Source of the DNA: an archaeon
GTDB lineage: Archaea; Aenigmatarchaeota; Aenigmatarchaeia; GW2011-AR5
Direction: 5' to 3'
NCBI GenBank assembly: GCA_016191585.1
Contig: JACPVU010000018.1
Location: 1-44,573 of the forward strand
DNA length: 44,573 nt
The notes under the pieces are model-generated. The model was given only the letters and a program-made list of their open reading frames with translations, ran no database searches and was not told the DNA's origin. Both the position numbers and the translations under genes were made by a program. Below are positions 9,523 to 34,164 of the stretch, piece after piece (the stretch's first letter is position 1; every line of letters starts with the position of its first letter).

Positions 9523-9914
9523 TGTCGGGTCCAATGGATCATATGACAAGCCCATTGAATGATGAACTTCACGAATCCAACAGAATAGATAAAAGAAAAA
9601 AGAGAAATGGCTTAATAGGAAAAACTGTAACTTACGTCGGGCTGACTGCTCTTGGAATAAGTGCTTTGTATTCTATATACAAAAACTTACCTGAAACCCG
9701 CATTAAAGACTATGAAGGAGAATGGGTTCCTGTTGTAACGAAATACGACGACCGCATATGGAATATAGCAAGGGACCGCGGCGCCGGAGAATACATTTCT
9801 TCGTGGTGCGACAAAATAATCGAGAAAAACAAGGAAAGAGACTTCCTGTTCAATCCAACATATATTCAGATAGGCGACACAATCTGGATACCGAAAGATA
9901 TGACAATAAAATAA
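9522..9914 (+). CDS. membrane-anchored protein with a C-terminal LysM-like domain
   Basis: One TM helix (VTYVGLTALGISALYSIY). The C-terminal 'YDDRIWNIARDRG...IQIGDTIWIPKD' matches the LysM pattern (GDT.W.IA ... G..I.IP). Confidence 0.55.
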   Translation: MSGPMDHMTSPLNDELHESNRIDKRKKRNGLIGKTVTYVGLTALGISALYSIYKNLPETRIKDYEGEWVPVVTKYDDRIWNIARDRGAGEYISSWCDKIIEKNKERDFLFNPTYIQIGDTIWIPKDMTIK

Positions 9915-17743: not shown

Positions 17744-18226
17744 ATGACAATTGCATTCGTCGATCCGGCAGTGGTTCCGTACCTTTCCACATTCCTGCTA
17801 GTTTTTGCTACGGTTTTCGGACTTCTCACAATCGCGAACATAGGCAGTAACAAGGAAAAGGGGACACCTGGCATAGGAAAGAAAGTCAACGCGATGATAG
17901 CTCTTGCTGTTGCATTGTTTTCACTGACGTACGAGCCGCTTGTGGTGAACCTCAACACGTATATACCGTATGTCGTCATACTGCTGCTCGCCCTGTTTTT
18001 GATAGTCTTCGTCAAGAAGATCTTCGAGGGCAAGGAAGGGAAGGGACACGACACCCTGCCGATAGTCGCAGCCATAGCGATGCTGCTCATAGTAATGACT
18101 GTTGTTGGTGACAGATTCGCAGCACTGGCTCCGGAAGGGACAAACCCGGAGACGTTAATGTGGATCGCCGGGATCGTATTTGTAATATTGTTTTTCGCTG
18201 CAATCTACAAGCACTCGTCAAAGTAA
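17744..18226 (+). CDS. 4-TM membrane protein (paralog family member B)
   Basis: 160 aa. Same architecture as members C and D ('FLLVFATVFGLLT', 'AMIALAVALFSLTY'). Confidence 0.65.
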   Translation: MTIAFVDPAVVPYLSTFLLVFATVFGLLTIANIGSNKEKGTPGIGKKVNAMIALAVALFSLTYEPLVVNLNTYIPYVVILLLALFLIVFVKKIFEGKEGKGHDTLPIVAAIAMLLIVMTVVGDRFAALAPEGTNPETLMWIAGIVFVILFFAAIYKHSSK

Positions 18227-18302: not shown

Positions 18303-18794
18303 ATGGCTTTTGACCCGACTCTAGGAAATCCGTTTGCGACTCTAGGCATAGACTTCTATGGATTCTTCCTTCCGTGGATATTCACGTTCGCGATCGTATA
18401 CGGACTGCTTGCCAAGCTGAACCTGTTCGGCGGCAAAAACGACAAAATATCAATGGCACTTGCATTTGTTATCGCATTCTTCGTATCAGCAGTAGGCGGA
18501 CCGCAGCTCGCAACATTCTTTACGAGCATATTCGGCGGAGCTGCAATGTTCCTTGCGGGCATACTCGTAATAATACTTTTCGCGGCGCTGCTCGGGCACA
18601 CGGACTTCAAGCACATGGGCGCACTGGTAATAGTCGTGATCATAGGAATATTCCTGTTCCTGTCATCAAGCAACCAGTTCATTTCAGTGAGCGTGATAGG
18701 CCCTGACGTTGCCAGCCTTATATTCTGGATTGTAATCATAATCGTGGCAATATACTTCGTGACACACGAGAAGAAAGATGAGCAACATCATTAA
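18303..18794 (+). CDS. 4-TM membrane protein (paralog family member C)
   Basis: 163 aa. 'FYGFFLPWIFTFAIVYGLLAK ... FFVSAVGGPQLATFFTSIFGGAAMFLAGILVIILF' aligns residue by residue with member D. A GGTGA SD motif is present. Confidence 0.75.
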   Translation: MAFDPTLGNPFATLGIDFYGFFLPWIFTFAIVYGLLAKLNLFGGKNDKISMALAFVIAFFVSAVGGPQLATFFTSIFGGAAMFLAGILVIILFAALLGHTDFKHMGALVIVVIIGIFLFLSSSNQFISVSVIGPDVASLIFWIVIIIVAIYFVTHEKKDEQHH

Positions 18795-19430: not shown

Positions 19431-19907
19431 GTGCGAAAAATGGCTGATCCGTTCACGATATTAGTTGCTAACCTGAATGGTCTTGGATTCTTTGGGTTTC
19501 TGCTTCCGTTCATATTCGTATTTGTTGTCGTATACGGGCTTCTGATCAAGACGAAATTTTTTGAGGACCAGAAGATAATAGGTGTTTTGTCGTTAGTTCT
19601 TGCGTTCTTTGTTATAGGCTACGGAGGTCCGATGCTTGCAAATTTCTTTGTTAACCTGTTTGGATTGGCTGCGGTGATAATAGCAGGCATACTCGTAATC
19701 GTGCTGTTTATTGCAATGACTGGCGGCGATATAAGCAAGATAGCAAGCGGCAAGTCAGTAGCAGCAGCTCTTGCAGGAATAGGAATAATAGTATTTTTCA
19801 TAGCACTCGGCGCTCTCGGCGTGGCAATCAATGATTCCGTGATAGGAATAATCTTTGTTATAGTAATCCTGGCGCTGGCTGTCTTATTCATAACAGGGTC
19901 TAATTAG
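19431..19907 (+). CDS. 4-TM membrane protein (paralog family member D)
   Basis: 'FFGFLLPFIFVFVVVYGLLIK ... FFVIGYGGPMLANFFVNLFGLAAVIIAGILVIVLF'. The likely start is the ATG at 19440, preceded by AAGGTG. Confidence 0.75.
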   Translation: MRKMADPFTILVANLNGLGFFGFLLPFIFVFVVVYGLLIKTKFFEDQKIIGVLSLVLAFFVIGYGGPMLANFFVNLFGLAAVIIAGILVIVLFIAMTGGDISKIASGKSVAAALAGIGIIVFFIALGALGVAINDSVIGIIFVIVILALAVLFITGSN

Positions 19908-21448: not shown

Positions 21449-24400
21449 GTGATGCCAATGACTTATGAATACGAATACGACGAGCAGAACCAGAAGATAA
21501 GGATAAACTGCCTCGGCGCTGTACAGGGTTCTAACATAGAGGATTTTCCTGTCTGCATGGCAAAGACGATAGACAACTTGATGGAACTGAAAAAGGTCGC
21601 AAAGATCGTTCTTGTCGACGTACGTGAGTATGAATATGACGTGAGCGAAGCAAGAATGCTGCTTGAGATAGCAAACGCCATTGAGTACATAATAAAGGAA
21701 AAGCTCGTCAGCATGGAAAATATTGTCCTGCCTGGCTGTGAAATGGAATCGCCGGAAAGGTATTCATTTCTGCAGAGATTTCTCAACGACATAAAATACG
21801 ATCCTATCGACGCCTACAAAAAACTCATCCGTGAAATGAGAAAGCAGAAGGTCCGCAGCGAGAGGGAAACTGGCATCGCGAAGGATTGTCATCTTCACTA
21901 CATAAACAATTCACTTATACCGATAAAAACCGCGCTGGATAAATGCAAGATGATACAGCTGGCTGTTCCGCAGCTGGCAGAACACAAGAACCGCTCGCTG
22001 TACAGAAAAATATTTCATCCGACAATAAGGCCGAATTTCATCTATACAAAATACGTATCGCTCCCGCCTCCGCATTCCGAGCTTATTGAAAGATATACTG
22101 TCGGGGAAATGAACGTTGAAATATACAGCGTGCCTGGACAGGTCAGAAAATTCTATCTGGCTATACCGCCTGAGTTCAAGCTCAACGAGACAGAATACAC
22201 GCTGCTGGATACGGCCAGAAGGTATATAGGCCACCACGAGCCGAGGGAAATAGAACTGGCCGAGCCGGAAAGGATAAGAGAAAATCTCTTTAGAATAGGT
22301 GTTGACATAATACGCGACCTTGCTTCGTCACAAAACTATGCAATTTCTGAGTCGAGGATCGAGAAGCTTTCGAAGATACTTGCACGTTACACAGCAGGAC
22401 TTGGCGTGATTGATTTAATACTGCAGGATGAAAACATACAGGACATCGTGATAAACGCGCCTATAGGGTCGTCGCCTGCGTTCATCTTTCACGCAAACCA
22501 CGAGGAATGCGAGACAAATATTGTACCGAGCATAGAAGACGCAGAAACGTGGGCAACGAGATTCCGACTATATTCAGGGCGTCCGTTAGATGAGGCCAAC
22601 CCTGTACTGGATACAGAATTGATAGTGCCAGGAGGCAGGGCTCGTGTCGCTGCTGTAACAAGGACATTGTCGCCTGACGGGCTGGCATTTGCTTTCCGCA
22701 GGCACAGGGACAAGCCGTGGACTTTCCCGCTTTTCATAAAAACGAAGATGATAGACCCGCTCGCAGCAGGGCTTATGTGGTTCCTTATTGACGGTGCAAG
22801 GACCCTGCTCATTGCCGGTACAAGGTCGAGTGGAAAATCCTCATTCTTGGGTGCGTGCATGGTGCAACTGATGCCGAAAATAAGGATAATCAGTACTGAG
22901 GACAGCGTTGCGGGTGATTGTGAAATATTCTATGAGAATCACGGAAAAATAGAAAAATCCACTGTAGGCAATCTTATAGACAGCACCATAGAGAAATATG
23001 GTTGTGACCATGACTTTGACCGGGAGGTTGCCAAGAAAAATCCTGAAAATATAAGGGTATTTTCCATGGACAATAAAGGCAAAATAAAACTATCTAACGT
23101 AAGTTCTTTCATAAGACATAAAACAAAAAAGGACTTATTTGAAATAACTACGCGAACAGGAAGAAAAATAAAGGTAACAGGAGACCACTCTTTGTTTCAT
23201 CTGAATAAAGAAGGAAAAATAGCACCGGTCAAATGCTGCGACCTGAAAATAAATGATTACCTTGCAGTTCCGAGGATTTTGCCGTTTGAAAACAGTCTGG
23301 TCGAATCGCTAGATATTCTTGACTATATAGAAAATGATAAGGATGTTTACCTGCAAGGCGATGGTGTCAGGGATTTTGTAAGACATAACAGGAACGAAAT
23401 AAGGAAACTGGGGTCAAAATCGAATCTGGAGCACTGGACACGCGGCATATTGCCACTGAAAATCACCAGAAAAATAAATTCTCAGCATGGGCTGGAAAAA
23501 GACGTGCAGATAAAATTCGGGAAACATGCCAGACCTTTGCCACGTATAATAATACTCGACAAAGAAATGCTTGAGTTCTTCGGCTTGTGGCTCGCTGACG
23601 GATGTTACGATAAGAATGAAGTCATAATATCCGTAGTTGACGAAGATTCGAGAAATGTTGTGAGAAATATTGCCGCATATCTTGAAATAAAAGTTACCAT
23701 GCATACAGACGGCATATCACTGATACTGCACTCACGTACGCTTAAGCATATGATGAAATGCCTCGGATTTGACGGAAATGCATATACAAAAGAAATTCCA
23801 AAATGGGTCTTCAATCTGTCAAAGAATCAGATAGCACACTTCATGAGGGGCATCTTCAGCGGTGACGGATACCTCACGAACAACGAAGCTGCCATAAATC
23901 TTGTCTCTCAAGGCATGATAAAAGATATCCAGACAATGCTTCTCATGTTTGGCATTACGAGCAGAATAAACAGGATAGGAAAAGATATGACATATTCCTG
24001 CAGGATAAGCCAGCTTGATTCCATAAGAAAATTCGCTTCCATAGGATTTCTCCAGCAATGGAGATTTCAAAAGCTTTCTGAGATGTGCAAAAAAATCTCC
24101 ACCCACGACTCCCCGGATATCGTGCCTTTTTCGAAGGAATTCAAGCTAAAAATACGGGAATCCTATGAAAGTTTTAACTATCACGACTACATTGTTCGCG
24201 GCAATAACATAGGAAGAAACAAATTATTGACAATGACAAAGTCCGTGAATGCACCATCATTAGCTGAAAACCTTTGCCTACTTGCCGAATCGGACATATT
24301 CTGGGATCAGATACGGGAAATAAGACGCATGGAAAACCCTGAAGAATGGGTTTATGATTTTTCTGTGCCTGAATGCGAGAATTTTGTATGTGAAAACATA

Positions 24401-25198
24401 ATTGCTCACAATACACTGGAACTGCCTTTCGACCAGCTGCGCGAGTTGGGATACAACATAGAAAGGCTGAAGTCGCGGTCAGTAATTACGCACGTCGAAA
24501 CAGAGCTGCCAGCAGAAGAGGCGCTGAGAACAGCTCTGCGATTAGGTGACAGCGCGCTGATTGTAGGTGAAATAAGAAGCAAGGAAGCGCTTGCGCTGTA
24601 TGAAGCCATGAGAATAGGCGCCCTGGCTAATATGGTAGCAGGAACAATACACGGAGATTCTGCATACGGAGTTTTTGACCGTGTGGTGAACGACCTTGGC
24701 GTGACTCCGACAAGCTTCAAGGCAACTGACATTGTTCTTGTTGCGAACATGCTGCGTTCGCCTGAAGGCCTGCACGCTTTCAGAAGGGTCGTCGAGATAA
24801 CAGAAGTCAGAAAACACTGGAAGCACGACCCAGCAGAAGAAAACGGCTTCGTTAACTTGTTCGAATATTCTGCAAGGGAAGACATACTCAAGCCGAGCAA
24901 GACGCTCCTGATGGGGGAATCGCAGGTGCTCAATGATATATCGATGCGTATCCGCGAATGGAAGGGAAACTGGAACGCTGTATGGAACAACATACGATTA
25001 AGGTCAAGGATATTGCAGGCAATTGTAGATTATTCTGTCATAAAGAACAGACCTGGTCTTTTGGAAGCTGATTTCGTAGTTGCGTCTAATTCTATGTTCC
25101 ATATAATCAGCTCTGAAGTAAAGGAAGAAGTAGGGGACTTTGACAACGAAGAAATTTTCGAGCGCTGGAACACGTGGATGAAGAAGCAGACGCAGTAA
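21449..25198 (+). CDS. type IV pilus/archaellum-class (FlaI/PilB/VirB11-like) secretion ATPase, interrupted by an intein
   Basis: Walker A 'AGTRSSGKSS'. 'RIISTED|...|TLELPF' restores the conserved IEDT.EL box after intein removal. Walker B 'ALIVGEIR' and His box 'GTIHGDS' are present. The spliced size is about 746 aa. Confidence 0.9.
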   Translation: MMPMTYEYEYDEQNQKIRINCLGAVQGSNIEDFPVCMAKTIDNLMELKKVAKIVLVDVREYEYDVSEARMLLEIANAIEYIIKEKLVSMENIVLPGCEMESPERYSFLQRFLNDIKYDPIDAYKKLIREMRKQKVRSERETGIAKDCHLHYINNSLIPIKTALDKCKMIQLAVPQLAEHKNRSLYRKIFHPTIRPNFIYTKYVSLPPPHSELIERYTVGEMNVEIYSVPGQVRKFYLAIPPEFKLNETEYTLLDTARRYIGHHEPREIELAEPERIRENLFRIGVDIIRDLASSQNYAISESRIEKLSKILARYTAGLGVIDLILQDENIQDIVINAPIGSSPAFIFHANHEECETNIVPSIEDAETWATRFRLYSGRPLDEANPVLDTELIVPGGRARVAAVTRTLSPDGLAFAFRRHRDKPWTFPLFIKTKMIDPLAAGLMWFLIDGARTLLIAGTRSSGKSSFLGACMVQLMPKIRIISTEDSVAGDCEIFYENHGKIEKSTVGNLIDSTIEKYGCDHDFDREVAKKNPENIRVFSMDNKGKIKLSNVSSFIRHKTKKDLFEITTRTGRKIKVTGDHSLFHLNKEGKIAPVKCCDLKINDYLAVPRILPFENSLVESLDILDYIENDKDVYLQGDGVRDFVRHNRNEIRKLGSKSNLEHWTRGILPLKITRKINSQHGLEKDVQIKFGKHARPLPRIIILDKEMLEFFGLWLADGCYDKNEVIISVVDEDSRNVVRNIAAYLEIKVTMHTDGISLILHSRTLKHMMKCLGFDGNAYTKEIPKWVFNLSKNQIAHFMRGIFSGDGYLTNNEAAINLVSQGMIKDIQTMLLMFGITSRINRIGKDMTYSCRISQLDSIRKFASIGFLQQWRFQKLSEMCKKISTHDSPDIVPFSKEFKLKIRESYESFNYHDYIVRGNNIGRNKLLTMTKSVNAPSLAENLCLLAESDIFWDQIREIRRMENPEEWVYDFSVPECENFVCENIIAHNTLELPFDQLRELGYNIERLKSRSVITHVETELPAEEALRTALRLGDSALIVGEIRSKEALALYEAMRIGALANMVAGTIHGDSAYGVFDRVVNDLGVTPTSFKATDIVLVANMLRSPEGLHAFRRVVEITEVRKHWKHDPAEENGFVNLFEYSAREDILKPSKTLLMGESQVLNDISMRIREWKGNWNAVWNNIRLRSRILQAIVDYSVIKNRPGLLEADFVVASNSMFHIISSEVKEEVGDFDNEEIFERWNTWMKKQTQ
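22904..24412 (+). mobile_element. 503-aa intein with a LAGLIDADG homing-endonuclease domain
   Basis: It starts 'SVAGDCEIF' (block A, Ser1), has block B 'VTGDHSLF', LAGLIDADG motifs 'FGLWLADGCY' (about 23580-23610) and 'RGIFSGDGYL' (about 23845-23875), and ends 'VYDFSV...ENIIAHN' followed by the +1 Thr. Confidence 0.9.
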
Positions 25199-25420
25199 TT
25201 CGTATACAAATATTCGAGAATTAGAGTATTGGTTTGGAAAAAGTTATTGTTGAACGCCACATATTTTTTGAAGAATGGTCGTCATGATTTTTTATTCATA
25301 TAATTTTTGAATTCCATTAAATCTATATAAAGTTAGTTGAATATTCTACGCATTCAATTGAACGAGTTGACGAGATTCATCCTGCATCCAGAATCGCAAA
25401 CACTATGTCGTCTTGCCGGC

Positions 25421-27376
25421 TTACGCTGATGTTACAGACGATATCAGCGGGCCGAACATTGTCAGCGTCATCAGAAGCGATACGGTAAACACGACGAAGC
25501 CGATGATGAGTGTGTAGCCTGTCACGTTTGCCCTTCCTATCGGGTCTTCCCCGTTTTCTATGGTGTTTATGAACATCGATATGATGAAAGACGATTCTAT
25601 CATGTAGATCGCAACGACGAAGATGAACTGGAACGGCGATATGGGTATCTGGCTGAATTCCGAGATCATCGGTATGCTCGTGCCAAGCGCAGGTGCCTGG
25701 TCTCCTAGCTGTTTCAGTATCCGGATTATGATTATTGCAAGCGTTGCCACTGTGCCGGATATCATCGGTGTCAGGAAGAATCCCTGGAACTTTAGCGAGC
25801 CGACAACCTCATTCAGCGAGTCCCTGACTTCTTCCTGGGTTGTATGCAAATTTTTGAGATACTTGGATATCGAGAGCATGCTGTTTGACGCGACAACAAT
25901 TCCCTTCTTTGATGATTCTACAACTGTTCGCATTACAGATTTTATCAGTTTTGACGGATAGTAGCGGACAGCTCCGTATTTCTCCTCGAAAAAAGCCTGC
26001 TGGAAAGTGAATCCGAGGAGTTTCATGTTGTTTATTGCCTTTGAAAACAGTTCCTTTATCTTCAGGGTCTTTATCCTTGCGAGCGTGTTTTCCATTGCCA
26101 TTTCTATTGGCCTTCCGCTTGATACCTGGTTGCCTAACTGGAACAAAGCTTCTGCAAACTCGCCCTCGATCTGCATTGTCTCGCTGCGGAGCTTCATCTT
26201 CTGGCTCGACGTGAGTATGAAATACAGCGCAAATCCCAGGGCAAGTCCAAAAGTTATGACGATTGCAGGTGTTATTCCCTCGAAGTTTTTGCTGTCTATA
26301 GATTCATTAGAATAAAGAAACAGACCAAACAAAATAATTAAAATGCCGATTATTGCTGCAATAGGCCACGCCCTGACGAATTTTTTCTTGAACCTGAACC
26401 TGCCTTTTGGCGGGACATTGGGGTTCTCGCTTATGTCGACGTTGCTGAACGTTGCGGGCCGGACAGAAAGTATGTTCATGATTATGAAGTACAGCATGAA
26501 AGGCAGAATTATGTCGTATCCTATAAAGAGTACGACCGCGTTGACGTGCAGGAAAACAGCTATTATAGGGAACAGCACGAGCCCCATGACAGGCAGGATT
26601 ATTCCAAGTGCGTGGACAACTGTAACAGGCAGTCTCAAACTCTGGTTGAAATGCTTTGCATCTTCCCTGTTGCCTTCAAGGATGATATTCACTGCTTCCT
26701 CTAACATATTTAATCTCTTTTCGCCGACCTGCTTCATCGACGATGTCATCAGCTGGACTGACTCAACGAAATGGCGGTTAGCGGACCATTTCTTTGTATA
26801 ATCAGTCAGGGCTTCTTCCATGGAGAGATAGTTGCCGACCTCTACGTCCCAGAGCATCTTCTTGAGCTCGTAGCCTATGCTGCCTGTTATGTTCTCGGCA
26901 GCGAACTTGACAGCGCCTTCCAGGCTTGGGTTGTTCCTCATGTAGATTACTGAATACAGGATGAAAGTCACTATGTCAGAACCAACCATCATCGTGTAGG
27001 TCGTTTTCAGTTTTATCGGGTAATAGTAGATGTAGTAAGTCAGTATCATGCCTATCAGAAGGAGCAGCATTCCGTATCCGAAGAAGCCTAAGAACACCAG
27101 CAGAAAAGTCGGTATGAGAACCATTATCAAAAACAAGAACGTGAATGAGACGATGCCTGTAGGTGTAGCCTTCAGGTGCGTGAAATCTATCGCGTCCTGA
27201 AGTCTTTTTCCGGATTTCTTGTCCGGCTTCACCCTGATTATCTTCTCGGAGAAATTGCAGGCTTTTTCGTAGACGGTTATCGGCAAAGACGTGAGCCGCT
27301 CTTCTTCTAGAAATATCTTGTACTCCCTGGAAATGAGCTTCTTTATCTCGGCTGTCCGCTTTTTTTTGTCCATCAA
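25421..27376 (-). CDS. polytopic FlaJ/TadC/PilC-like pilus platform membrane protein
   Basis: 651 aa. The alternation of cytoplasmic helical domains and TM bundles is typical of the T2SS-F/FlaJ family. It lies adjacent to the secretion ATPase. Confidence 0.75.
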   Translation of the reverse strand: MMDKKKRTAEIKKLISREYKIFLEEERLTSLPITVYEKACNFSEKIIRVKPDKKSGKRLQDAIDFTHLKATPTGIVSFTFLFLIMVLIPTFLLVFLGFFGYGMLLLLIGMILTYYIYYYPIKLKTTYTMMVGSDIVTFILYSVIYMRNNPSLEGAVKFAAENITGSIGYELKKMLWDVEVGNYLSMEEALTDYTKKWSANRHFVESVQLMTSSMKQVGEKRLNMLEEAVNIILEGNREDAKHFNQSLRLPVTVVHALGIILPVMGLVLFPIIAVFLHVNAVVLFIGYDIILPFMLYFIIMNILSVRPATFSNVDISENPNVPPKGRFRFKKKFVRAWPIAAIIGILIILFGLFLYSNESIDSKNFEGITPAIVITFGLALGFALYFILTSSQKMKLRSETMQIEGEFAEALFQLGNQVSSGRPIEMAMENTLARIKTLKIKELFSKAINNMKLLGFTFQQAFFEEKYGAVRYYPSKLIKSVMRTVVESSKKGIVVASNSMLSISKYLKNLHTTQEEVRDSLNEVVGSLKFQGFFLTPMISGTVATLAIIIIRILKQLGDQAPALGTSIPMISEFSQIPISPFQFIFVVAIYMIESSFIISMFINTIENGEDPIGRANVTGYTLIIGFVVFTVSLLMTLTMFGPLISSVTSA

Positions 27377-27672
27377 TACTAATTGTCACGCCTCTTAAAT
27401 AATGTTTTTTCCTGAGGTAATGTGGATGTAATTGTATGTTCAGTTAATTTTGGAACATGTTATGCTGAACATACAGTATAGCGGGTTCAAAATAAAAGTT
27501 CCGATATTATTCGAACCCACTATAAGCGATCTAGATGTTAGTCGGTTGTTATTTTCATGTGTCTGCAGGTGTCTATAGCAATGTCAGAAACGGCAAACAC
27601 TCTGTCGATTCTATTTCAATTGTCAATATTGTCATACTCATACGAAATTTCGTGATTTTATGATACGACTTT

Positions 27673-27855
27673 GATTGAATTCCATATTCGTATAATGATA
27701 GTCAACGTAGACATATACCTCATAGAACTTTGTTCTGTGGGGTCTTGGAAAGCTTTGCTTTCCAAAGACATCAAGGGACGTATATGTCAGCCAGGAGCGT
27801 TATCAAAAATATAATGCTCCTCACGTCGACTATCATATTTTAATGGAATTCAATC
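27673..27855. repeat. 183-nt multi-tier inverted-repeat element with 3 internal hairpins, function unknown
   Basis: Tiers: GATTGAATTCCAT/ATGGAATTCAATC (13 bp), ATGATAGTCAACGT/ACGTCGACTATCAT (14 bp, 1 mismatch) and GACATATAC/GTATATGTC (9 bp). Inner hairpins: AGAAC/GTTCT, GTCTTGGAAAGC/GCTTTCCAAAGAC and AGGAGCGTTAT/ATAATGCTCCT. Confidence 0.85.
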
Positions 27856-27861
27856 TACTAC

Positions 27862-27869
27862 TTTAAAAA
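27862..27869 (+). promoter_or_regulatory. candidate TATA box (TTTAAAAA) of the pilin-like operon
   Basis: It lies 29-36 nt upstream of the ATG at 27898, which has no SD motif, consistent with a leaderless transcript. It also directly follows the 3' arm of the structured element. Confidence 0.35.
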
Positions 27870-27897
27870 TCGGGGGCCACATATACTATTGATAACT

Positions 27898-28053
27898 ATG
27901 GACGAGATGTGGCTGATAATAATGATGTTCTTCATGGTGCTCATATTCGTGTTCATGGTGGCTGTAACTCAGGGATGGATAGATATCGCAAAGCCGCAGA
28001 TAGCCATAGGCGCTGCTATCCTTGTTAAGAATAAAAGAACCAGGAAGCGATGA
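27898..28053 (+). CDS. 51-aa single-TM mini-protein with a polybasic C-terminus (below the ORF-track cutoff)
   Basis: Translates to MDEMWLIIMMFFMVLIFVFMVAVTQGWIDIAKPQIAIGAAILVKNKRTRKR. The stop lies 1 nt before the next ATG. Confidence 0.5.
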   Translation: MDEMWLIIMMFFMVLIFVFMVAVTQGWIDIAKPQIAIGAAILVKNKRTRKR

Positions 28054-28054
28054 A

Positions 28055-28201
28055 ATGGATTTGAGAAAGAATCTGCTGACAACGGTTGTGATTATACTGC
28101 TGATATTAGTTATATTGTTCGCGCTGTGGGAATCTATGACAGGAGATGCGCCTAAAACAGTGTCCCAGTTTTTCATGGATCTGACAAGAGGCCTTGGATA
28201 G
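28055..28201 (+). CDS. 48-aa Flp-sized TM mini-protein (family member 1; below the ORF-track cutoff)
   Basis: Translates to MDLRKNLLTTVVIILLILVILFALWESMTGDAPKTVSQFFMDLTRGLG. It is tightly coupled to both flanking ORFs. Confidence 0.55.
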   Translation: MDLRKNLLTTVVIILLILVILFALWESMTGDAPKTVSQFFMDLTRGLG

Positions 28202-28202
28202 T

Positions 28203-28379
28203 ATGACTGAGAAAAAAGGAATCGTGATAACAACAGAGATGCTTGTAACGATCATATTCATAATAGTCGCAGCTCTAATACTGTTCTTTTTCTGGGCGTC
28301 GTTCTCCAGTGAAGCAGGCGGGCCTGTCAGCAGCCTGTTTTACAAGTTCATGGATTTCCTGACAGGATTCATGTCGTAG
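28203..28379 (+). CDS. 58-aa pilin-like mini-protein (family member 2) with a class-III-like 'KKG' leader
   Basis: Translates to MTEKKG|IVITTEMLVTIIFIIVAALILFFFW...LFYKFMDFLTGFMS. The track ORF 28194..28379 starts at a TTG, and the ATG at 28203 is preferred. Confidence 0.6.
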   Translation: MTEKKGIVITTEMLVTIIFIIVAALILFFFWASFSSEAGGPVSSLFYKFMDFLTGFMS

Positions 28380-28387
28380 GTGTTTTC

Positions 28388-29326
28388 ATGCCCGAAGAAA
28401 ACGTGATAGTCGTCATCATAGTGATGTTCATCGTACTTGCAATAGTCGTTGCGACATTCGGGATGTCAAATCCTTTCAAGACTGTCTACGGAACTTTTTC
28501 ACAAACAAGGGAAATGATAACCATAACCAGGGTTTCTGCTGATCCAGTCGCATACGACGCAGGCAATGGCAAGTATACTATAGCTACAGCACTGCTGTTT
28601 CATGTTGATCCTGATCCTGACGACAAATCAGATACAGTAAATCGCGGTATAATACCTCTCATTAGTTTCAAGAATTCGTACGCAAAATCTGAAACTATAT
28701 TCTTAACAAGCGGAGAAGATGACTACGACAAACCAAGTGTCAAGTTTGAAATAGTGAGCAGTTCACCGCCTATCGAAAACCCGAAAACCATGACCGGCGC
28801 TGAATTTCCGCCGATTGAAGAATATGACAAATGGATTCATAATGAAAGAAAAATCGAGAGAGACCATACTTACTTGTTTGAGGATGGCGATGAAAACAGG
28901 TATCTAATTTCATTGTCAGAACTGGAAATAAAAGGCAACATACTTGGATTTTCCAAGACTTGCAGGGCAAGGTTTAGGATGGAATGCAAAAACGACCTGA
29001 AGCAGTCGGAAGAGGTTGAAGGATGCAATATAGACGAGAAAGAATGCACCGACACAACCGTATTCAGGAACTGCAACGACGGCACTGTCACGATAAAAGC
29101 CAACAGCCTTTATTGCATTGCCGGATACGCAGACGTCACAGTAACGACAAAGGACGGGATGAAGTGGAGTGACATGGGCGAGACAGCTGTCGTAAGCCTT
29201 TTCAGGAACAGCGACTGCGTAAATACAGAGCTGCAGCGGGCTCTTGCAAACGGCATTAAGATACTGAACGAGAACTGCCCTAACGATTTCTTGGCTAGCA
29301 AGAAAATAACATTGAAAATATCGTGA
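28388..29326 (+). CDS. secreted or anchored Cys-containing protein with an N-terminal hydrophobic helix (pilus-associated candidate)
   Basis: N-terminus 'MPEENVIVVIIVMFIVLAIVVATFG'. 312 aa, 9 Cys in the C-terminal half. An AGGTG SD-like motif lies upstream. Confidence 0.6.
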   Translation: MPEENVIVVIIVMFIVLAIVVATFGMSNPFKTVYGTFSQTREMITITRVSADPVAYDAGNGKYTIATALLFHVDPDPDDKSDTVNRGIIPLISFKNSYAKSETIFLTSGEDDYDKPSVKFEIVSSSPPIENPKTMTGAEFPPIEEYDKWIHNERKIERDHTYLFEDGDENRYLISLSELEIKGNILGFSKTCRARFRMECKNDLKQSEEVEGCNIDEKECTDTTVFRNCNDGTVTIKANSLYCIAGYADVTVTTKDGMKWSDMGETAVVSLFRNSDCVNTELQRALANGIKILNENCPNDFLASKKITLKIS

Positions 29327-29383: not shown

Positions 29384-30136
29384 ATGAAGCTTAAACCACG
29401 GCATGCCCTCATCCCGATACTTGTGTTTCCTGTCTTATTTTGTATATATATGTATACGGCTGAAAAACTCGAAGAAAGACGACAGCATCAGAAATATCAG
29501 GCATACAGAAACGCTGAAAACGACGTTCAGATATATCTCGATGACGTAAAAAACGGCGAGGGATGGAAGATCGACAGCATTTCTTCCGTACTAAACAGCA
29601 GGAGTTATTGCGGTATAACCTATTCAAAAGCCGTAGACGCGCTTGTCAGGACGCGAAGCCCGAAAGCGTATGAACCGCTCCTAAAAGTCGCTGGGGGCGC
29701 AAATCCTTATACATACAGTGAAGTCACTTATAAATTCGATGATGGGTCAACAGACGTTTACGATCCTAATACTGTAGCGATAAAATGGCTTGCAAGAACC
29801 AGCGGAAAGAAGGCGCTGAAACACTTTGTCAGAGAATTCGAAAAAGACCAGCCATACTCAAACCCGTACGTGATCTCGCGCTTTATTCTTGAAGGTGTCA
29901 ATCCAGGAGAGGAAAAAGACGATGTTATTGCAGCCATTTCAAAACCACTCCTTCAGCGCCCTACAAGGTGTGATGAAATAATTTATGCTGACGCGCTGAG
30001 AAAAGTCGATAACAAAGCCGCTGAAATCGTGGCAAAGGAAATCGATAGCTGGAAATTTTTTTATATTAATGATAACTTCTACTACCGAAATAATGACTGC
30101 GCGAAAGATATAACAGCCACACTAATCGGGCAATAG
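29384..30136 (+). CDS. N-terminally anchored protein, possibly HEAT-repeat-like
   Basis: Signal-anchor 'ALIPILVFPVLFCIYMY'. Repeated helical segments 'AVDALVRTRSPKAYEPLLKV', 'AIKWLARTSGKKALKHFV' and 'ADALRKVDNKAAEIV' are a weak HEAT-like pattern. Confidence 0.45.
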   Translation: MKLKPRHALIPILVFPVLFCIYMYTAEKLEERRQHQKYQAYRNAENDVQIYLDDVKNGEGWKIDSISSVLNSRSYCGITYSKAVDALVRTRSPKAYEPLLKVAGGANPYTYSEVTYKFDDGSTDVYDPNTVAIKWLARTSGKKALKHFVREFEKDQPYSNPYVISRFILEGVNPGEEKDDVIAAISKPLLQRPTRCDEIIYADALRKVDNKAAEIVAKEIDSWKFFYINDNFYYRNNDCAKDITATLIGQ

Positions 30137-30545
30137 CTTTACAAAAAACACAACTGGCTATTTTCTTTGTTCATAAATGACGCTTAGTCAATTACTGCCC
30201 ATAAATTGAATGAACGCATTAAGACGAGCATCAATCTTTCGTTGCTTTTTTGGCCCAATTCTGCAAAAATATCAGGTTCATGTTTAGTTGTCGAAATTCA
30301 TCTCATAGCTGAATCCAGAAGCGTTCTTTCGATACCTATAACGCATTTATTTAGCCCGGAACAATATGATATATAGCATCTGACATAAATATTCAGACAT
30401 ATTATGATGTCAGTGCTATATACAGAGACATTATTTTTGTACGAAAAATAATGTCATCTGTTATAGTAAGGCAATCAGAATCCCGTTGTATGAATTGCAT
30501 ATAGCAATAAAATAATGCCGGGGTTGTCTTATTGCTGTACTAGAA

Positions 30546-31403
30546 GTGATAGAATTGAAAGGGTCTATAGAATTTTCGCAGGGCGCTGTGCTGTACATAA
30601 TACTCATGCTTTTAGTCATTTTCATAGGGCTTATGATTGTGACCAAGGGACAGCTCCTGCTGGTATTTGAGCAGGACTCGCTTTCAAAGATGTTCGGACC
30701 TTCGCAGTTTCAGATGACAACCACTGTCAACGGAAAGGAGCAATCACTGTCTGAAAAAAATGTGCAGATCGAATGCATTAACTGGAATCTTAACTGGAAT
30801 CTGAAAATCAACAACGTTGGGTTCAGATATACAGGTGGCGGCAAGGACAACCTTAAATTCATAGTCGTGCTGGACCTGAACAAAGTCATGAGGGTAGGAC
30901 ATGACATCAGTTCAAACTTTTTATTTACGTGCACAAAACAGGGGGAAGGCACAAGCGCCAAATACGAATGCGGCGAGTCAAAAGAAATAATATTTGATTC
31001 TGTGCAGGCCGGCGGAGTTCTCCACTTCACTGCGTGGAAAGACGACGAAAATGCAGAGATTGCCAATAAGATCGCACCTAATCCTGACTATACGTTTGGC
31101 GATCTCGTAGACGAATACTCACAGAACTATATGGGTTCTTATGACCTGTCTGGTTTGACAGCATTCGAGGCGTGTCTCGGAGACATATGCAAAAAAATCA
31201 AAGATGGAGATGCTTGTATGAATACGAAGATAAAAAACAACGACAATAACGATATTGGATGCTGGTTCCAGTCAGGTAATTGCTATGCCTGCAAAACAGT
31301 TACGAAGTGCGGTGATTTTAAAAGCAGTGCTGAATGCAAACAGTGCAGCACTTACAACAACCTGAACTGTGGTTGGATATCGAATCAGTGCAAAAATGGG
31401 TGA
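30546..31403 (+). CDS. archaeal type IV pilin-like protein (class III signal peptide) with a Cys-rich C-terminal module
   Basis: 'MIELKG|SIEFSQGAVLYIILMLLVIFIGL' fits the archaeal prepilin pattern (K-G then x-S-x-E-F plus a hydrophobic helix). It has 14 Cys, 11 of them in the last 85 aa or so. Confidence 0.65.
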   Translation: MIELKGSIEFSQGAVLYIILMLLVIFIGLMIVTKGQLLLVFEQDSLSKMFGPSQFQMTTTVNGKEQSLSEKNVQIECINWNLNWNLKINNVGFRYTGGGKDNLKFIVVLDLNKVMRVGHDISSNFLFTCTKQGEGTSAKYECGESKEIIFDSVQAGGVLHFTAWKDDENAEIANKIAPNPDYTFGDLVDEYSQNYMGSYDLSGLTAFEACLGDICKKIKDGDACMNTKIKNNDNNDIGCWFQSGNCYACKTVTKCGDFKSSAECKQCSTYNNLNCGWISNQCKNG

Positions 31404-31408
31404 TACAT

Positions 31409-31543
31409 ATGGCAGATATATGGAGAGAGGTTTTGTGGATAATATTATTACTGATAGCACTTGGCGCTATTACATCGATAGCCGCTTTCATGAGCGGCGG
31501 CTCTTTCAAGGTTCTTGAGAACGTTCTGGGATTTTTGAGGTGA
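31409..31543 (+). CDS. 44-aa TM mini-protein (family member 3)
   Basis: Translates to MADIWREVLWIILLLIALGAITSIAAFMSGGSFKVLENVLGFLR. A GGGTGA SD motif lies 5 nt upstream. The track ORF 31334..31543 overlaps the previous gene, so the ATG at 31409 is preferred. Confidence 0.6.
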   Translation: MADIWREVLWIILLLIALGAITSIAAFMSGGSFKVLENVLGFLR

Positions 31544-31547
31544 TAAA

Positions 31548-31673
31548 ATGAGGTTGGAATATGTCGTAGTCGGTTTCATACTGGTGATGATTGTGCTTCT
31601 CATAGCGATCTCCATGCTGAATGGAGCTGTACCTGGAATCTTTGATGTCATAAAACTGATATCTGGCCAGTAA
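31548..31673 (+). CDS. 41-aa TM mini-protein (family member 4; below the ORF-track cutoff)
   Basis: Translates to MRLEYVVVGFILVMIVLLIAISMLNGAVPGIFDVIKLISGQ. A GAGGTGA SD motif lies 4 nt upstream. Confidence 0.6.
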   Translation: MRLEYVVVGFILVMIVLLIAISMLNGAVPGIFDVIKLISGQ

Positions 31674-31708: not shown

Positions 31709-33322
31709 ATGACAGATTCGATAGAAGAGGTAATATTTCCCGCAATCGGCTTAGTTTTCCTTCTTCTCGGGATAGTGCTGTTGGCGTCGATACTGTTTTC
31801 TGCTTTCAATCCATATGACCAGATAGCTTTCATCAACGCAGAAAAACTGAGGGCAAAGATAGACGAGGCGTGCATGACTAATAATGTAATGACAACTAAC
31901 AGTATCGAGCTCAGGCAGAATACGCCCTCGTTCACGTGGGCATTCAGCATACTGCCCAGGTGGTTGATACGTTCAGGCGGCGATCCTAATTATGTTTTAT
32001 ATTATGAAGCTTTTCCTCCAGGCGAAGCAACAGGCTGGGAAGTCTATCATGACATGCAGGCCAGAATAATAACACCTGTAACTGATGATTTCTTGAAAAG
32101 TCAACCAACACAATATGCCGGACAGTCTGTAATGGAATATGTGAAAGAAAAAGTGGAAAAAGCATATACAGGCAGCGACAAGATTGACTCTATAATCATA
32201 AGCAACATAGTTCTCAGCGAAGATTTCAGGGCAGACTACAGAATTGACAAAAAAGAATTGGAAAAATTCACTAGTGGTGGAGGTTCATTTGGTGGAGCTG
32301 GTGCGTCTACTTCGTGGAAGGGCGGGCCTGTTGAAGAGGCAAAGAAATCAGAGGAAAAATTCTTCTCGTACGGAAAATGGAGGGACCAAGATAAAGACAC
32401 GAAAATTCCCCTAACAGGTGCTGACAACGTATTTATGTTTTCAAACTACATGAGTCTCAGCCCGTCAGAAAAAACAGCCATAAAGTACATGCCTTGTGGT
32501 GTGAATTCACTGTGCCTAAAAACGAGAAGCGGCATATACTCGTTTCCGTTGCATCAGTGCAATGTTAAAGGCGTGCCAATAATAAATGATATTTTAATCG
32601 ATTACAATGGTGGTGGTGATGTTCCTCTTGGTAAAAAACTTCTCAACAATGTCAAGTCTGCCTTAGGCGGTCTTCTTATTTGGATAACGAAAGGTACGAG
32701 TCCTGGAGCCGATTTGGCTGGTGGTGGTTTGATTGCATCCGCTATCAGCGACTCATTGGTGAACAGCCTTCAATACAAACTAAGTGAGTTTTATATTGTC
32801 AGCCCGTGCACGATATCTGACAAACAACAGCTCAATAAAATAACGATACAGAAAAAAGAGTGCAAAGACGTATGTGAGAGCTACATATCGTATCCTATTT
32901 ATAGCTACGATTCAAAAAATCAAAAACTCAATCCTACTAATAATAATCACTTTGTATGCACAAGGTCGATTGGAAATACGATAAATAATCCGCCCGACAA
33001 TCTGATGCCCGGACAGTGCATAGTAGTAAGTATTGCAGCGAAAAAAAGCGATTATTGCTGGACACCGCAACCTAAAGACACAGGGTTGATTAGCAATTTA
33101 TGGAATTCTGTCAAACAACTTTATCCACCTGGCGTAGTTGCTTCTGCTGTCTTGAATATAGGTTATGGTTATCCCATTACCGGAAACACGGCATTTATTG
33201 CGCCTAATCAAAATTTAGATACCGACAATATGATAATTCTGAAACCAACCCAAACAGCACTTAAGGAAGGTGAGGGATTTTTCGAGAGCTTGGACAGAAA
33301 ACTGTTCTGGGGCTGGCCATGA
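31709..33322 (+). CDS. large secreted or anchored Cys-containing protein with a pilin-like N-terminus (pilus tip/adhesin candidate)
   Basis: 'MTD SIEEVIFPAIGLVFLLLGIVLLASILF' recalls the SIEF motif of 30546. 537 aa, Gly-rich linker 'SGGGSFGGAGAS', about 13 Cys. An AAAGGTG SD-like motif lies upstream. Confidence 0.6.
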   Translation: MTDSIEEVIFPAIGLVFLLLGIVLLASILFSAFNPYDQIAFINAEKLRAKIDEACMTNNVMTTNSIELRQNTPSFTWAFSILPRWLIRSGGDPNYVLYYEAFPPGEATGWEVYHDMQARIITPVTDDFLKSQPTQYAGQSVMEYVKEKVEKAYTGSDKIDSIIISNIVLSEDFRADYRIDKKELEKFTSGGGSFGGAGASTSWKGGPVEEAKKSEEKFFSYGKWRDQDKDTKIPLTGADNVFMFSNYMSLSPSEKTAIKYMPCGVNSLCLKTRSGIYSFPLHQCNVKGVPIINDILIDYNGGGDVPLGKKLLNNVKSALGGLLIWITKGTSPGADLAGGGLIASAISDSLVNSLQYKLSEFYIVSPCTISDKQQLNKITIQKKECKDVCESYISYPIYSYDSKNQKLNPTNNNHFVCTRSIGNTINNPPDNLMPGQCIVVSIAAKKSDYCWTPQPKDTGLISNLWNSVKQLYPPGVVASAVLNIGYGYPITGNTAFIAPNQNLDTDNMIILKPTQTALKEGEGFFESLDRKLFWGWP

Positions 33323-33376
33323 GCAATATAAATTGATATTTACATTTGTAACAATTACTATCAATAAGAAAAATAT

Positions 33377-34164
33377 TTAGAGTTTTATTATATCGTATAC
33401 GACGATTACTTCCCATAAACGTATGATGAAATGTGTTAATAAAACGTCTTTTTCGTCGTTGTATTCGGTAATCACATGTCTTGTGTGAATTCTTCCCGAA
33501 TCTATGTTTCTGAATCTTGGAAACCAGTGTTTTATCCGCCATGTATTTTCTATGTCGTTGTTGTTGTGTTCCTTGAAGCTGATAAATTTGTCGTGTTTTA
33601 CTTCTGGACCAAATACTTCGAAAATTGCTCTCCTGTACGCAGGTAATCCATCTGTTCGTATAATTTTCGGCCAATAGCCAGGAGGAAAACGCCTTCTAGC
33701 TTCCCAAAACAGAAATTTAGCGTCTTGTAAAGTCCGTGTTTTCGATAAGTGTGATGCCACAACTTTCTTCGTTTTTATGCACTTCACTCCCCACAACCAT
33801 GCTTTTTCGCCATTGAAAAGCTCTATCTGTGTTTCGTCTGTTTCCAGCAGTTCTCCAAGACCACGAATTACTTCTCTGTCATCTTTGGCGAATCTTCTGC
33901 ACCATCTGCCTATGGAAGAGATAGATTTTACGACGATATTAAACGCATTTGACACTACTTTTCTGGTCTTTTTCAGGGTAAGACCTTCGTGCCTTATCTC
34001 GACAGCGCTATAGACCTGATTTTTTGGAAATCTCATTCTTTTCCAATCTGTGTCGATAGACTGCCGACCACAACCCCGACACAAAAATTTTGTACAATAC
34101 CCCTGTTTTTTAACTCCCTCTTACCATTCTTTATCATGGCAAGGCCACAATTTGGACATTTCAT
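33377..34164 (-). pseudogene. IS6-family-like DDE transposase, frameshifted between the N-terminal Zn finger and the catalytic core
   Basis: The core ORF 33377..34084 carries 'TDETQIEL', 'IIRTDGLPAYRRAI' and 'NNNDIENTWRIKHW' (a D-D-E pattern). The upstream ATG at 34164 encodes 'MKCPNCGLAMIKNGKRELKNRGIVQNF' in another frame. The two join only if 2 nt are skipped near 34083-34090 ('...QNF-CRGCGRQ'). Confidence 0.7.

Follow-up and report, generated by a model that had tools for sequence, protein, structure and literature searches.

What do the very small genes beside the assembly machinery of an archaeal type IV pilus-like locus encode, and could they be its pilins? The question arises from a 44,573-nucleotide (nt) contig of a member of the Aenigmatarchaeota (GenBank assembly GCA_016191585.1, contig JACPVU010000018.1; this whole stretch is called the window below), in which three tandem mini-open reading frames (mini-ORFs), here m1, m2 and m3, occupy positions 27898-28379. 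An earlier note, made from the sequence alone, had described them as ORFs of 51, 48 and 58 amino acids (aa) separated by 1-nt gaps, and comparison with the sequence and the ORF list shows these coordinates to be exact to the base. The note had also placed them at the head of a pilin-like operon, which is borne out by the adjacent genes for a T2SSE ATPase and a TadC/FlaJ-like platform protein. We lean towards reading m1-m3 as type IV pilins, or pilin-operon proteins, that lack a globular domain and belong to a type IV pilus-like machine of the Aenigmatarchaeota. The features on which this reading draws are:

m1, 27898..28053, + strand: 51 aa; ATG at 27898, TGA at 28051-28053
m2, 28055..28201, + strand: 48 aa; ATG at 28055, TAG at 28199-28201
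m3, 28203..28379, + strand: 58 aa; ATG at 28203, TAG at 28377-28379
Platform protein, 25421..27376, - strand: polytopic, TadC/FlaJ-like, 651 aa; divergent from the mini-ORFs
ATPase, 21449..25198, + strand: type II/IV secretion family (PilB/FlaI-like); interrupted by an intein with a LAGLIDADG endonuclease
TATA-like box (TTTAAAAA), 27862..27869, + strand: ~30 nt 5' of the m1 ATG

Three conserved genes under purifying selection

m1, m2 and m3 are real, conserved genes. The closest comparison lineage comprises L009, a metagenomic contig whose platform protein is 90% identical, and L016-L021, six contigs from independent assemblies that carry the m3 homologue P0001 (83% aa identity to the window m3). 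All six independent assemblies contain the same three ORFs with the same 1-nt junctions, gene-called as 49, 48 and 58 aa. The ORFs occupy three different frames with a 1-nt gap at each junction, and in the DNA alignment the junction stops differ from those of the relative (TGA to TAA, TAG to TAA) with the stop-1nt-ATG layout unchanged. The sole indel relative to this lineage, of 6 nt, is in-frame and falls in the basic tail of m1.

Conservation of the reading frames, a check proposed in the earlier note, is evident: the frames are intact in relatives and substitutions fall mainly at third positions. Codon-position differences (first/second/third) are 7/4/17 for m1, with a ratio of non-synonymous to synonymous rates (dN/dS) of 0.17 and 82-84% aa identity to the L009/L017 lineage. 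They are 14/7/27 for m2, at 75% aa identity, with a proportion of non-synonymous differences (pN) of 0.19 and a saturated synonymous proportion (pS). For m3, of which L009 carries only a part, they are 6/6/21 there and 9/8/23 across the full 58 codons in L017, with dN/dS of 0.12-0.13. The off-frames of each mini-ORF are stop-rich and give dN/dS values of 0.85-2.5. The window's contig has m1 and m2 among its called genes (P0046 and P0007, respectively). A 60-aa cut-off is passed only by a TTG-extended m3 ORF (28194-28379, 61 aa), which is consistent with the earlier note's remark that the ORF track had missed two of the three. An m1 start at the TTG at 27889 was rejected: the two intervening codons hold three differences from L017, all of them non-synonymous, and gene callers chose the ATG.

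It is hardly conceivable that the region is instead non-coding on the + strand, as a 5' untranslated region or RNA element, or that an antisense 115-aa ORF at 27886-28233 is the real gene. That ORF is indeed open in both the window and L017, and the first large gene, p312, begins only at 28388. Yet the antisense frames are closed in L022, the antisense pattern of differences is flat (27/24/37, dN/dS 0.41), and third-position differences make up 65 of 109 in the sense frames against 37 of 88 in the antisense frame. An Rfam scan of the region returned no RNA family, and the sense proteins of related loci are conserved down to lineages whose platform proteins are ~57-65% identical.

Constraint within the operon is uneven. 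The mini-ORFs have pN values of 0.04-0.19, versus 0.27-0.32 for the large exposed proteins of the locus (46-58% identity); the platform protein stands at 0.056 and the ATPase at 0.073. The pattern of the mini-ORFs fits proteins that are almost all conserved alpha1 helix, and the large proteins are candidates for exposed minor pilins or adhesins.

A type IV pilus-like locus

The ATPase matches Pfam T2SSE (1.5e-10), Intein_splicing (3.6e-27) and LAGLIDADG_3 (1.2e-13). Its intein spans approximately aa 529-988 and is also present in the L016-L020 relatives (1244 aa), not in the L022 ATPase (743 aa). The platform protein shows a weak T2SSF match (E 9.7e-4, in two stretches) that lies under the Pfam cut-off; its homologues (36-90% identity) adjoin the same operon in all Aenigmatarchaeota loci. 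The adjacency to an ATPase and a polytopic platform protein expected of type IV pilins is found here, and the linkage recurs in all related loci. Relatives of the platform protein come from metagenome-assembled genomes named Candidatus Aenigmatarchaeota or uncultured archaeon, and the window also holds genes for archaeal MCM, TFIIB, GatD/E and an ATP-dependent DNA ligase.

The locus is type IV pilus-like and of the DPANN 'dark matter' kind noted by Makarova, Wolf and Koonin (2019), in which unannotated signal-peptide proteins beside FlaI-like/TadC-like genes are predicted to be fast-evolving pilins (PMC6393860). The mini-ORFs are likewise unannotated and stand beside ATPase and TadC-like genes. 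That prediction is, however, a general one for larger proteins, and the mini-ORF family, the KKG motif, the two-module members and the m1/m2 split described below do not appear in the text searched.

A class III signal in m3 and a family around it

Each of m1, m2 and m3 contains one 19-residue stretch with a mean Kyte-Doolittle hydropathy of at least 3.0, in agreement with the single transmembrane (TM) helix that the earlier note had assigned to each; m1 has in addition a weaker second hydrophobic stretch, WIDIAKPQIAIGAAILV. Class III (prepilin) signals are defined by a short hydrophilic leader whose last residue is Gly (or, in archaea, also Ala), with ~21 predominantly hydrophobic residues after it (PMC4471445). 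The N-terminus of m3 is MTEKKG, a hydrophilic leader ending Lys-Lys-Gly, and then IVITTEMLVTIIFIIVAALILFFFW, which supplies the ~21 mostly hydrophobic residues past the predicted cleavage site (best 19-mer, mean hydropathy 3.02). A leader ending in Gly is found in m3 only among the three. The processing motif had previously been called atypical or absent; for m3 this does not hold, as MTEKKG/IVITTEM (the slash marks the predicted cleavage site) is a standard class III signal and, read from the sequence, a canonical archaeal one that is conserved across the family.

Orthologues of m3 occupy the same position in L001, L003, L008, L012, L022 and the L017 group, and orthologue N-termini include MKKG/ITITT, MHEKRQKG/IVITTEM, MIREKKG/MLMTTEL and MKKG/IVITTNF. 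When 1402 candidate starts in the window were scanned for class-III-like signals, m3 and p285 (..LKG/SIEFSQGAV) came out on top, and starts of the form MKKG/ and MSRKKG/ occur also on other operon proteins of relatives.

An m3-family HMMER profile run against 1.84 billion representative proteins recovered only 38 clusters at E<=0.001, and neither Pfam nor NCBIfam has a model for the family. The family consensus is M-x(0-6)-[KR]KG, I-x-[IL]-T-T, a TM helix, an AEAG-like turn and an FFY-x-x-FD-like tail, and its members lie between the platform gene and a p312-like gene. m3 is a full member of family profile A4 (E 1e-22 to 1e-10 to 18 clusters), and m2 is a divergent, leaderless member (P0006, E 7e-13; P0039, E 1.7e-6). 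An AlphaFold2 monomer of m3 has a helix at residues 11-34, a six-residue loop and a helix at 41-57 (predicted local distance difference test score, pLDDT, 72.8), and the predicted mature protein has 52 aa arranged as helix, turn and amphipathic helix. Relatives of m3 and m2 bear the JGI names 'flagellar basal body-associated protein FliL' and 'FtsZ-interacting cell division protein ZipA' (P0001 and P0006, respectively), almost certainly spurious transfers based on the TM helix.

m1 and m2 as the probable halves of a two-module precursor

The first two mini-proteins are organized differently. m1 has an acidic N-terminus, a TM helix and, at its end, the polybasic tail KNKRTRKR, with flank charges of -2 (N) and +6 (C), whereas m2 and m3 are neutral or positive at the N-terminal flank and -1 at the C-terminal one. 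These charges predict the opposite topology for m1, as the earlier note had suggested. m2 consists of a TM helix that begins at its own Met, a GDAP turn and an amphipathic tail, and it appears as a paralogue of m3 (L017 m2 versus window m3, 35% identity, E 1e-5). Its N-terminus, MDLRKN, contains no Gly, and neither m2 nor m1 has a class III leader. In family alignment A3 the m2 Met falls at the +1 position after KKG; m2 has no leader because its start sits exactly at +1. Extension to the TTG at 28022 was rejected since the relative has a stop in that frame, which excludes an upstream start, and no in-frame upstream start is common to the window and the relative. The L022 orthologue of m2 begins MNKG/QTGLW, and the junctions in L022 are ATGA overlaps.

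Eighteen of the 38 family clusters are 106-157 aa long and match the profile on their C-terminal half; 15 of these are matched in two stretches, and all 18 have a basic-Gly site, often RKKG, preceding the C-terminal half. A jackhmmer search from m1 recovered only the first ORF past the platform gene (L017 group, L010, L022) and the N-terminal half of a fused L001 protein. This 87-aa protein reads MNLPW...ITNGLINITRPEAVLSIFLYRKKG/MEADLVRV..., and the polybasic tail of m1 aligns with the n-region of its RKKG signal. Because the jackhmmer search from m1 matches the N-terminal half of the fused protein, m1 and m2 together correspond to one two-module gene. By this comparison, the m1/m2 pair probably arose when a two-module precursor was divided at its class III site; m1 would be the detached N-terminal ('leader') module and not an independent pilin. 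In an AlphaFold2 model of the fused protein the RKKG lies in a non-helical linker between helices, at low confidence (pLDDT 64.6).

A profile of the N-terminal modules of two-module proteins matches m3 and m2, not m1, and hhalign of the m2/m3 family against the m1 family gave 44% probability with TM segments only aligned. By these comparisons m1 forms a narrower subfamily, recovered by jackhmmer alone.

We regard it as very improbable that a two-module gene was recently frameshifted and is decaying, with m1 and m2 as its remains, or that the split is an assembly error, m3 alone being functional. The single 87-aa protein in L001, the difference in frame between m1 and m2 and an insertion sequence (IS) element in the window operon are what such decay would leave. 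The split state is nevertheless common to the window, the L017 group (six assemblies) and L022, and because it is shared by three lineages and both halves are under purifying selection, a recent frameshift or assembly error is excluded. Each half is constrained in its own frame, the stop codon has changed with the stop-1nt-ATG arrangement intact, the m1 indel is in-frame, and an AGGAAG run resembling a Shine-Dalgarno (SD) site precedes m2 in all three lineages (28042-28047 in the window, 7 nt 5' of the m2 ATG; kept in L017 and L022).

Leaderless starts are seen elsewhere in these loci. Two operon proteins of the window begin with a short acidic N-terminus and then a TM helix, namely p312 (MPEEN..., 28388) and p537 (MTDSIEEV..., 31709). 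Orthologues also alternate between a KKG/KG leader and a Met at or beside the predicted cleavage site (L001 12290 and 13607): the L001 m3 orthologue starts MELTAKTL against MTEKKG/IVITTEM in the window, and the L001 p285-like protein MPVHLSQSAV against ..LKG/SIEFSQGAV. Neither two-module precursors that contain an internal class III site nor pilin orthologues without a leader are described in the literature searched, whose coverage was incomplete.

Comparison with known pilin systems

tad loci have several small paralogous genes in tandem at the operon head and larger pseudopilin-like genes after them. The present operon is likewise headed by tandem small genes with larger genes downstream. 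Flp/Tad (type IVc) pilins, such as Caulobacter crescentus PilA (mature form 45 aa) and Aggregatibacter Flp1, are proteins of 40-60 residues that consist of alpha1 only and form helix-only filaments (PMC10710030), and the Tad system is thought to be of archaeal origin (PMC10710030, PMC6668835). Mature m3 (52 aa) and m2 (48 aa) fall within the 40-60 aa range and would likewise comprise alpha1 without a globular domain. The likeness to Flp/Tad pilins drawn in the earlier note thus stands for size and helix-only architecture and fails for family membership: m1-m5 and 14 family members gave no Flp_Fap (PF04964) hit at E<=1 and none in NCBIfam, and the E5-Y6-G7 motif (PMC10710030) is absent from m1-m3. 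Mature m3 begins IVITTEM, with E6 and no Tyr; its leader is short (6 residues including the Gly), whereas the Flp leader is long; and the AlphaFold2 model is a helix-turn-helix and not one continuous helix. An EY pair occurs only in m5 (MRLEY), which has no leader.

A second point of comparison is given by the small Epd/clade-1 major pilins of methanogens, of ~70 aa (M. maripaludis MMP1685/EpdE, arCOG06620), which have a class III signal and no C-terminal globular domain (PMC4858521). Here too class III proteins without a globular domain go with an ATPase and a TadC-like platform for assembly (PMC4858521; preprint 10.64898/2026.04.22.720090), and system 1 has been reported for some DPANN archaea. 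Major Epd pilin genes, however, usually stand alone (PMC4858521), whereas those considered here are operon-internal, tandem and probably coupled; the platform is one 651-aa protein in place of two genes; and two-module and leaderless forms are not described for Epd. Sequence similarity to the Epd pilins was not detectable: the mini-ORFs and family members gave no Pfam Class_IIIsignal (PF04021) hit, and Pilin_N (PF07790) reached E 0.11 for only one of the 14 members. A divided pilin gene is known from Geobacter sulfurreducens, in which PilA-N and PilA-C are two adjacent cooperating ORFs and PilA-N is short and helix-only (PMC10710030). That split separates alpha1 from a globular domain and both parts are in the filament, whereas here it falls at the signal cleavage site, between m1 and m2. 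By the tests made on their sequences, m1-m3 are pilin-like, analogous to the Flp and Epd pilins and members of neither group.

Expression and a proposed assembly route

Against the close relative, the block from the TATA-like box to the m1 ATG is conserved; the remaining intergenic region is unalignable and differs in length by ~300 nt. m1 lacks an SD-like purine run. The mini-ORF operon is probably transcribed from the TATA-like box, which would yield an mRNA with a very short leader or none. A purine-rich SD-like run precedes each of m2, m3 and p312 at 5-11 nt, and because their starts also abut the preceding stops, their translation is probably coupled.

A route from gene to filament can be proposed on this basis. 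[quoted passage not shown] The ATPase and platform would then extract the 52-residue subunit (hydrophobic alpha1, short turn, amphipathic helix) from the membrane, and it would polymerise into a thin helix-only filament, or prime one. As an m3 paralogue 'born mature', m2 would enter the same pathway unprocessed. The ancestral precursor would have had an N-terminal membrane module, a basic linker ending RKKG and a pilin module, and the split would coincide exactly with its cleavage site. The m2 start codon would thereby derive from the +1 Met of the pilin module, and m1 would have kept the basic n-region as a cytoplasmic C-terminal tail, lying N-out/C-in, in the opposite orientation.

Several observations weigh against pilins as the answer. 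Pfam and NCBIfam pilin-family hits are absent for m1-m5 and the 14 family members, the best being the single Pilin_N match given above; a PDB-sequence profile search gave only PsbI-type TM noise, and a Foldseek search of the m3 model against the PDB found no match. At D2, R4 and K5, m2 is charged in places where hydrophobic residues would be expected in the core of a filament. Many two-module relatives have an N-terminal module that itself looks pilin-like, with an MKG start, and this poses a topology problem for internal cleavage on the cytoplasmic side. A screen for GxGD-type motifs and multi-TM ORFs found no prepilin peptidase in the window or the examined flanks of relatives, and because these stretches hold no peptidase gene, the processing of m3 remains a prediction. 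The system may not function in this genome, since the operon is truncated by an IS element and five downstream genes found in relatives are missing.

Some of these observations would also suit a different role, to which we assign a smaller but appreciable chance: the mini-ORFs could be genuine pilus-machine proteins that act as membrane accessory subunits, for example by stabilising or gating the TadC/FlaJ platform, with KKG serving as a positive-inside signal only. Their conservation is core-like (pN 0.04-0.19 versus 0.06-0.07 for the platform protein and ATPase), the charged termini of m1 and m2 are poorly suited to a filament core, homology to known pilins is lacking, and the two-module forms resemble helical hairpins. 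Such subunits would leave unexplained, however, why basic-Gly, I-x-L-T-T and a TM helix compose an exact class III signal that is kept inside two-module proteins, where it is not required for the start of insertion. Leaderless orthologues (the L001 m3 and the window m2) that start at or next to the predicted cleavage site are also hard to explain unless this is the functional N-terminus, and helix-only major pilins are already established (PMC10710030, PMC4858521).

Small hydrophobic peptides unrelated to the pilus, such as a membrane-active toxin or a holin-like or bacteriocin-like product riding in the operon, are a most unlikely answer. Small size, a single TM helix, an amphipathic tail and the lack of a known family would suit them, but in every related locus examined they lie strictly between the platform gene and the genes of the larger class III proteins, translation appears coupled to that of p312, and the family is found in this context only, without accompanying immunity-like or lysis genes.

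A bolder extension may be entertained, which we put forward tentatively and hold to be less likely than not: the helix-only pilins of Aenigmatarchaeota might be made in three interchangeable ways, with a class III leader, from a poly-module precursor with an internal site, or 'born mature', with m1 as a surviving partner. The window m2, the L001 m3 orthologue, m5 (with its Flp-like MRxEY), p312 and p537 may be examples of the 'born mature' form. Were this true, some of the subunits could do without maturation by prepilin peptidase, a step regarded as universal among type IV filaments, and m1 would be an oppositely oriented, independent membrane protein under purifying selection that partners a pilin.

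The remainder of the operon

Downstream of m3 the operon continues with the following genes, each of which encodes a protein with an N-terminal hydrophobic helix:

p312, 28388..29326, + strand: N-terminal TM helix, leaderless (MPEEN...); candidate minor pilin or adhesin
p250, 29384-30136: N-terminal hydrophobic helix; window-specific
p285, 30546..31403, + strand: Cys-rich, short class III-like signal; candidate minor pilin or adhesin
m4, 31409..31543, + strand: 44 aa; single TM helix, GG turn, amphipathic tail
m5, 31548..31673, + strand: 41 aa; leaderless, single TM helix; N-terminus MR[LIVA]EY
p537, 31709..33322, + strand: acidic leaderless N-terminus (MTDSIEEVIF...), then a TM helix; candidate tip or adhesin subunit

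Pfam and NCBIfam searches with the five mini-ORFs and four larger operon proteins gave sub-threshold noise only. In related loci the recurrent order is mini-ORFs, p312-like, p285-like, m4, m5 and p537-like.

The earlier note had seen a shared tail pattern in m2, m3 and the two ORFs at 31409-31673 (m4 and m5). As architecture the pattern is real: in all four a TM helix is followed by a Gly/Ser-rich turn and then by an amphipathic tail of ~11 residues (hydrophobic moment, muH, 0.51-0.65). As homology it fails. hhalign of the m2/m3 family gave 5.5% probability against m4 and 5.3% against m5, and because at most the TM segment was aligned, the four tails are not taken as homologous. m4 keeps its position in 9 lineages (86% identity to L017, pN 0.106) and, on these comparisons, is a family separate from m2/m3. 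In m5, residues M1, R2, E4 and Y5 are invariant in 9 lineages, a leader is impossible given a stop just upstream together with a strong GAGGTGAT SD site, and pN is the lowest of the locus (0.043), below that of the platform protein and ATPase. Its Glu-Tyr pair recalls the Flp motif of mature Tad pilins.

The larger proteins are kept in position with more variable sequences. p312 starts 8 nt past m3, behind a TAGGTG SD-like site, and its position is kept in relatives, but it shares only 53-58% identity with L017 (pN 0.28). The signal of p285 reads (M)IELKG/SIEFSQGAV, or MKG/ if the TTG at 30555 is the start; the L017 orthologue has (M)RG/TIEFSQGAV from a TTG start, and p285 is also kept in L001, L003 and L008. 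p537 is kept in L001-L004, L008 and L011 (E down to 2e-85) but shares only 46-53% identity with the close relative (pN 0.315). p250 is missing from the close relative, where a 277-nt spacer occupies the L017 site, and tblastn found no match to it in any related locus; it has the look of an insertion particular to this lineage. The otherwise divergent spacer before p285 contains a conserved block (CGCATTTATTTAGCCCGRAAC.ATATGATATAT; window ~30355-30390, L017 ~9750-9790), which suggests a second promoter, for a p285-m4-m5-p537 unit.

Past p537 the operon of the window runs into an IS element and stops (33323-34084; the DDE_Tnp_IS240 transposase lies at 33377-34084 on the minus strand). Relatives have five further operon genes at this end (L017 12609-17346), of 123, 293, 272 (MKKG/F...), 767 (MSRKKG/A...) and 135 aa, for which tblastn found no match anywhere in the window; the L016 operon is cut still earlier, past its p312-like gene. 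The 767-aa protein (L017 14684-16987) combines the class III signal MSRKKG/AAPTMQTILLMII with an SLT lytic-transglycosylase domain (PF01464). A pilin-like protein with a cell-wall-cutting enzyme would suit a host-dependent DPANN archaeon, a suggestive connection.

Both the window (25421-27376, with the adjoining stretches 25199-25420 and 27377-27897) and the L016-L021 lineage have the platform gene inverted with respect to the pilin operon; in all other related loci, L001-L008, L010-L012 and L022, it is on the same strand, directly 5' of the mini-ORFs. Because of this inversion the region before m1 is a divergent promoter region. A perfect 15-nt inverted repeat (TTGAATTCCATTAAA / TTTAATGGAATTCAA), at 25307-25321 and 27839-27853, flanks the inverted platform gene, each copy just 5' of a TATA-like run. 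Its interpretation as an inversion scar is unproven. Since the 15-mer occurs in two other intergenic regions of L016 and is missing at the homologous L009/L017 site, it may be a promoter or regulator motif and not a scar.

Upstream of the ATPase are three paralogues of ~155-165 aa with 4-5 TM helices (17744-18226, 18303-18794 and 19431-19907; motif like FYGFLLPWIFTFAIVYGLL). Two to four copies stand beside the pilus locus in L002-L004, L006-L008, L011, L016 and L022. They match no Pfam family and lack the conserved Asp pair typical of prepilin peptidases; possibly they are an unrecognised component of the system. Farther away, an 84-aa ORF at 1903-2157 has the class III-like N-terminus MSSRG/VRNVIFTVVILVIGVELLW.

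Implications

DPANN archaea are tiny and host-dependent, and type IV pili are prime candidates for host attachment; their pilins are nevertheless largely unannotated 'dark matter' (PMC6393860). From this locus emerges a compact family, specific to the lineage, of helix-only pilin-like proteins that are overlooked or misnamed in standard annotation. Its gene architectures are unusual: an internal class III site between tandem modules, a probable fission at that site, and leaderless orthologues. Reconstructing such machines requires annotation that is aware of small ORFs. If processing were confirmed, the family would test how far the leader and peptidase step is required for type IV filament assembly, and it would allow a comparison with archaea when the origin of bacterial Flp/Tad pilins is considered.

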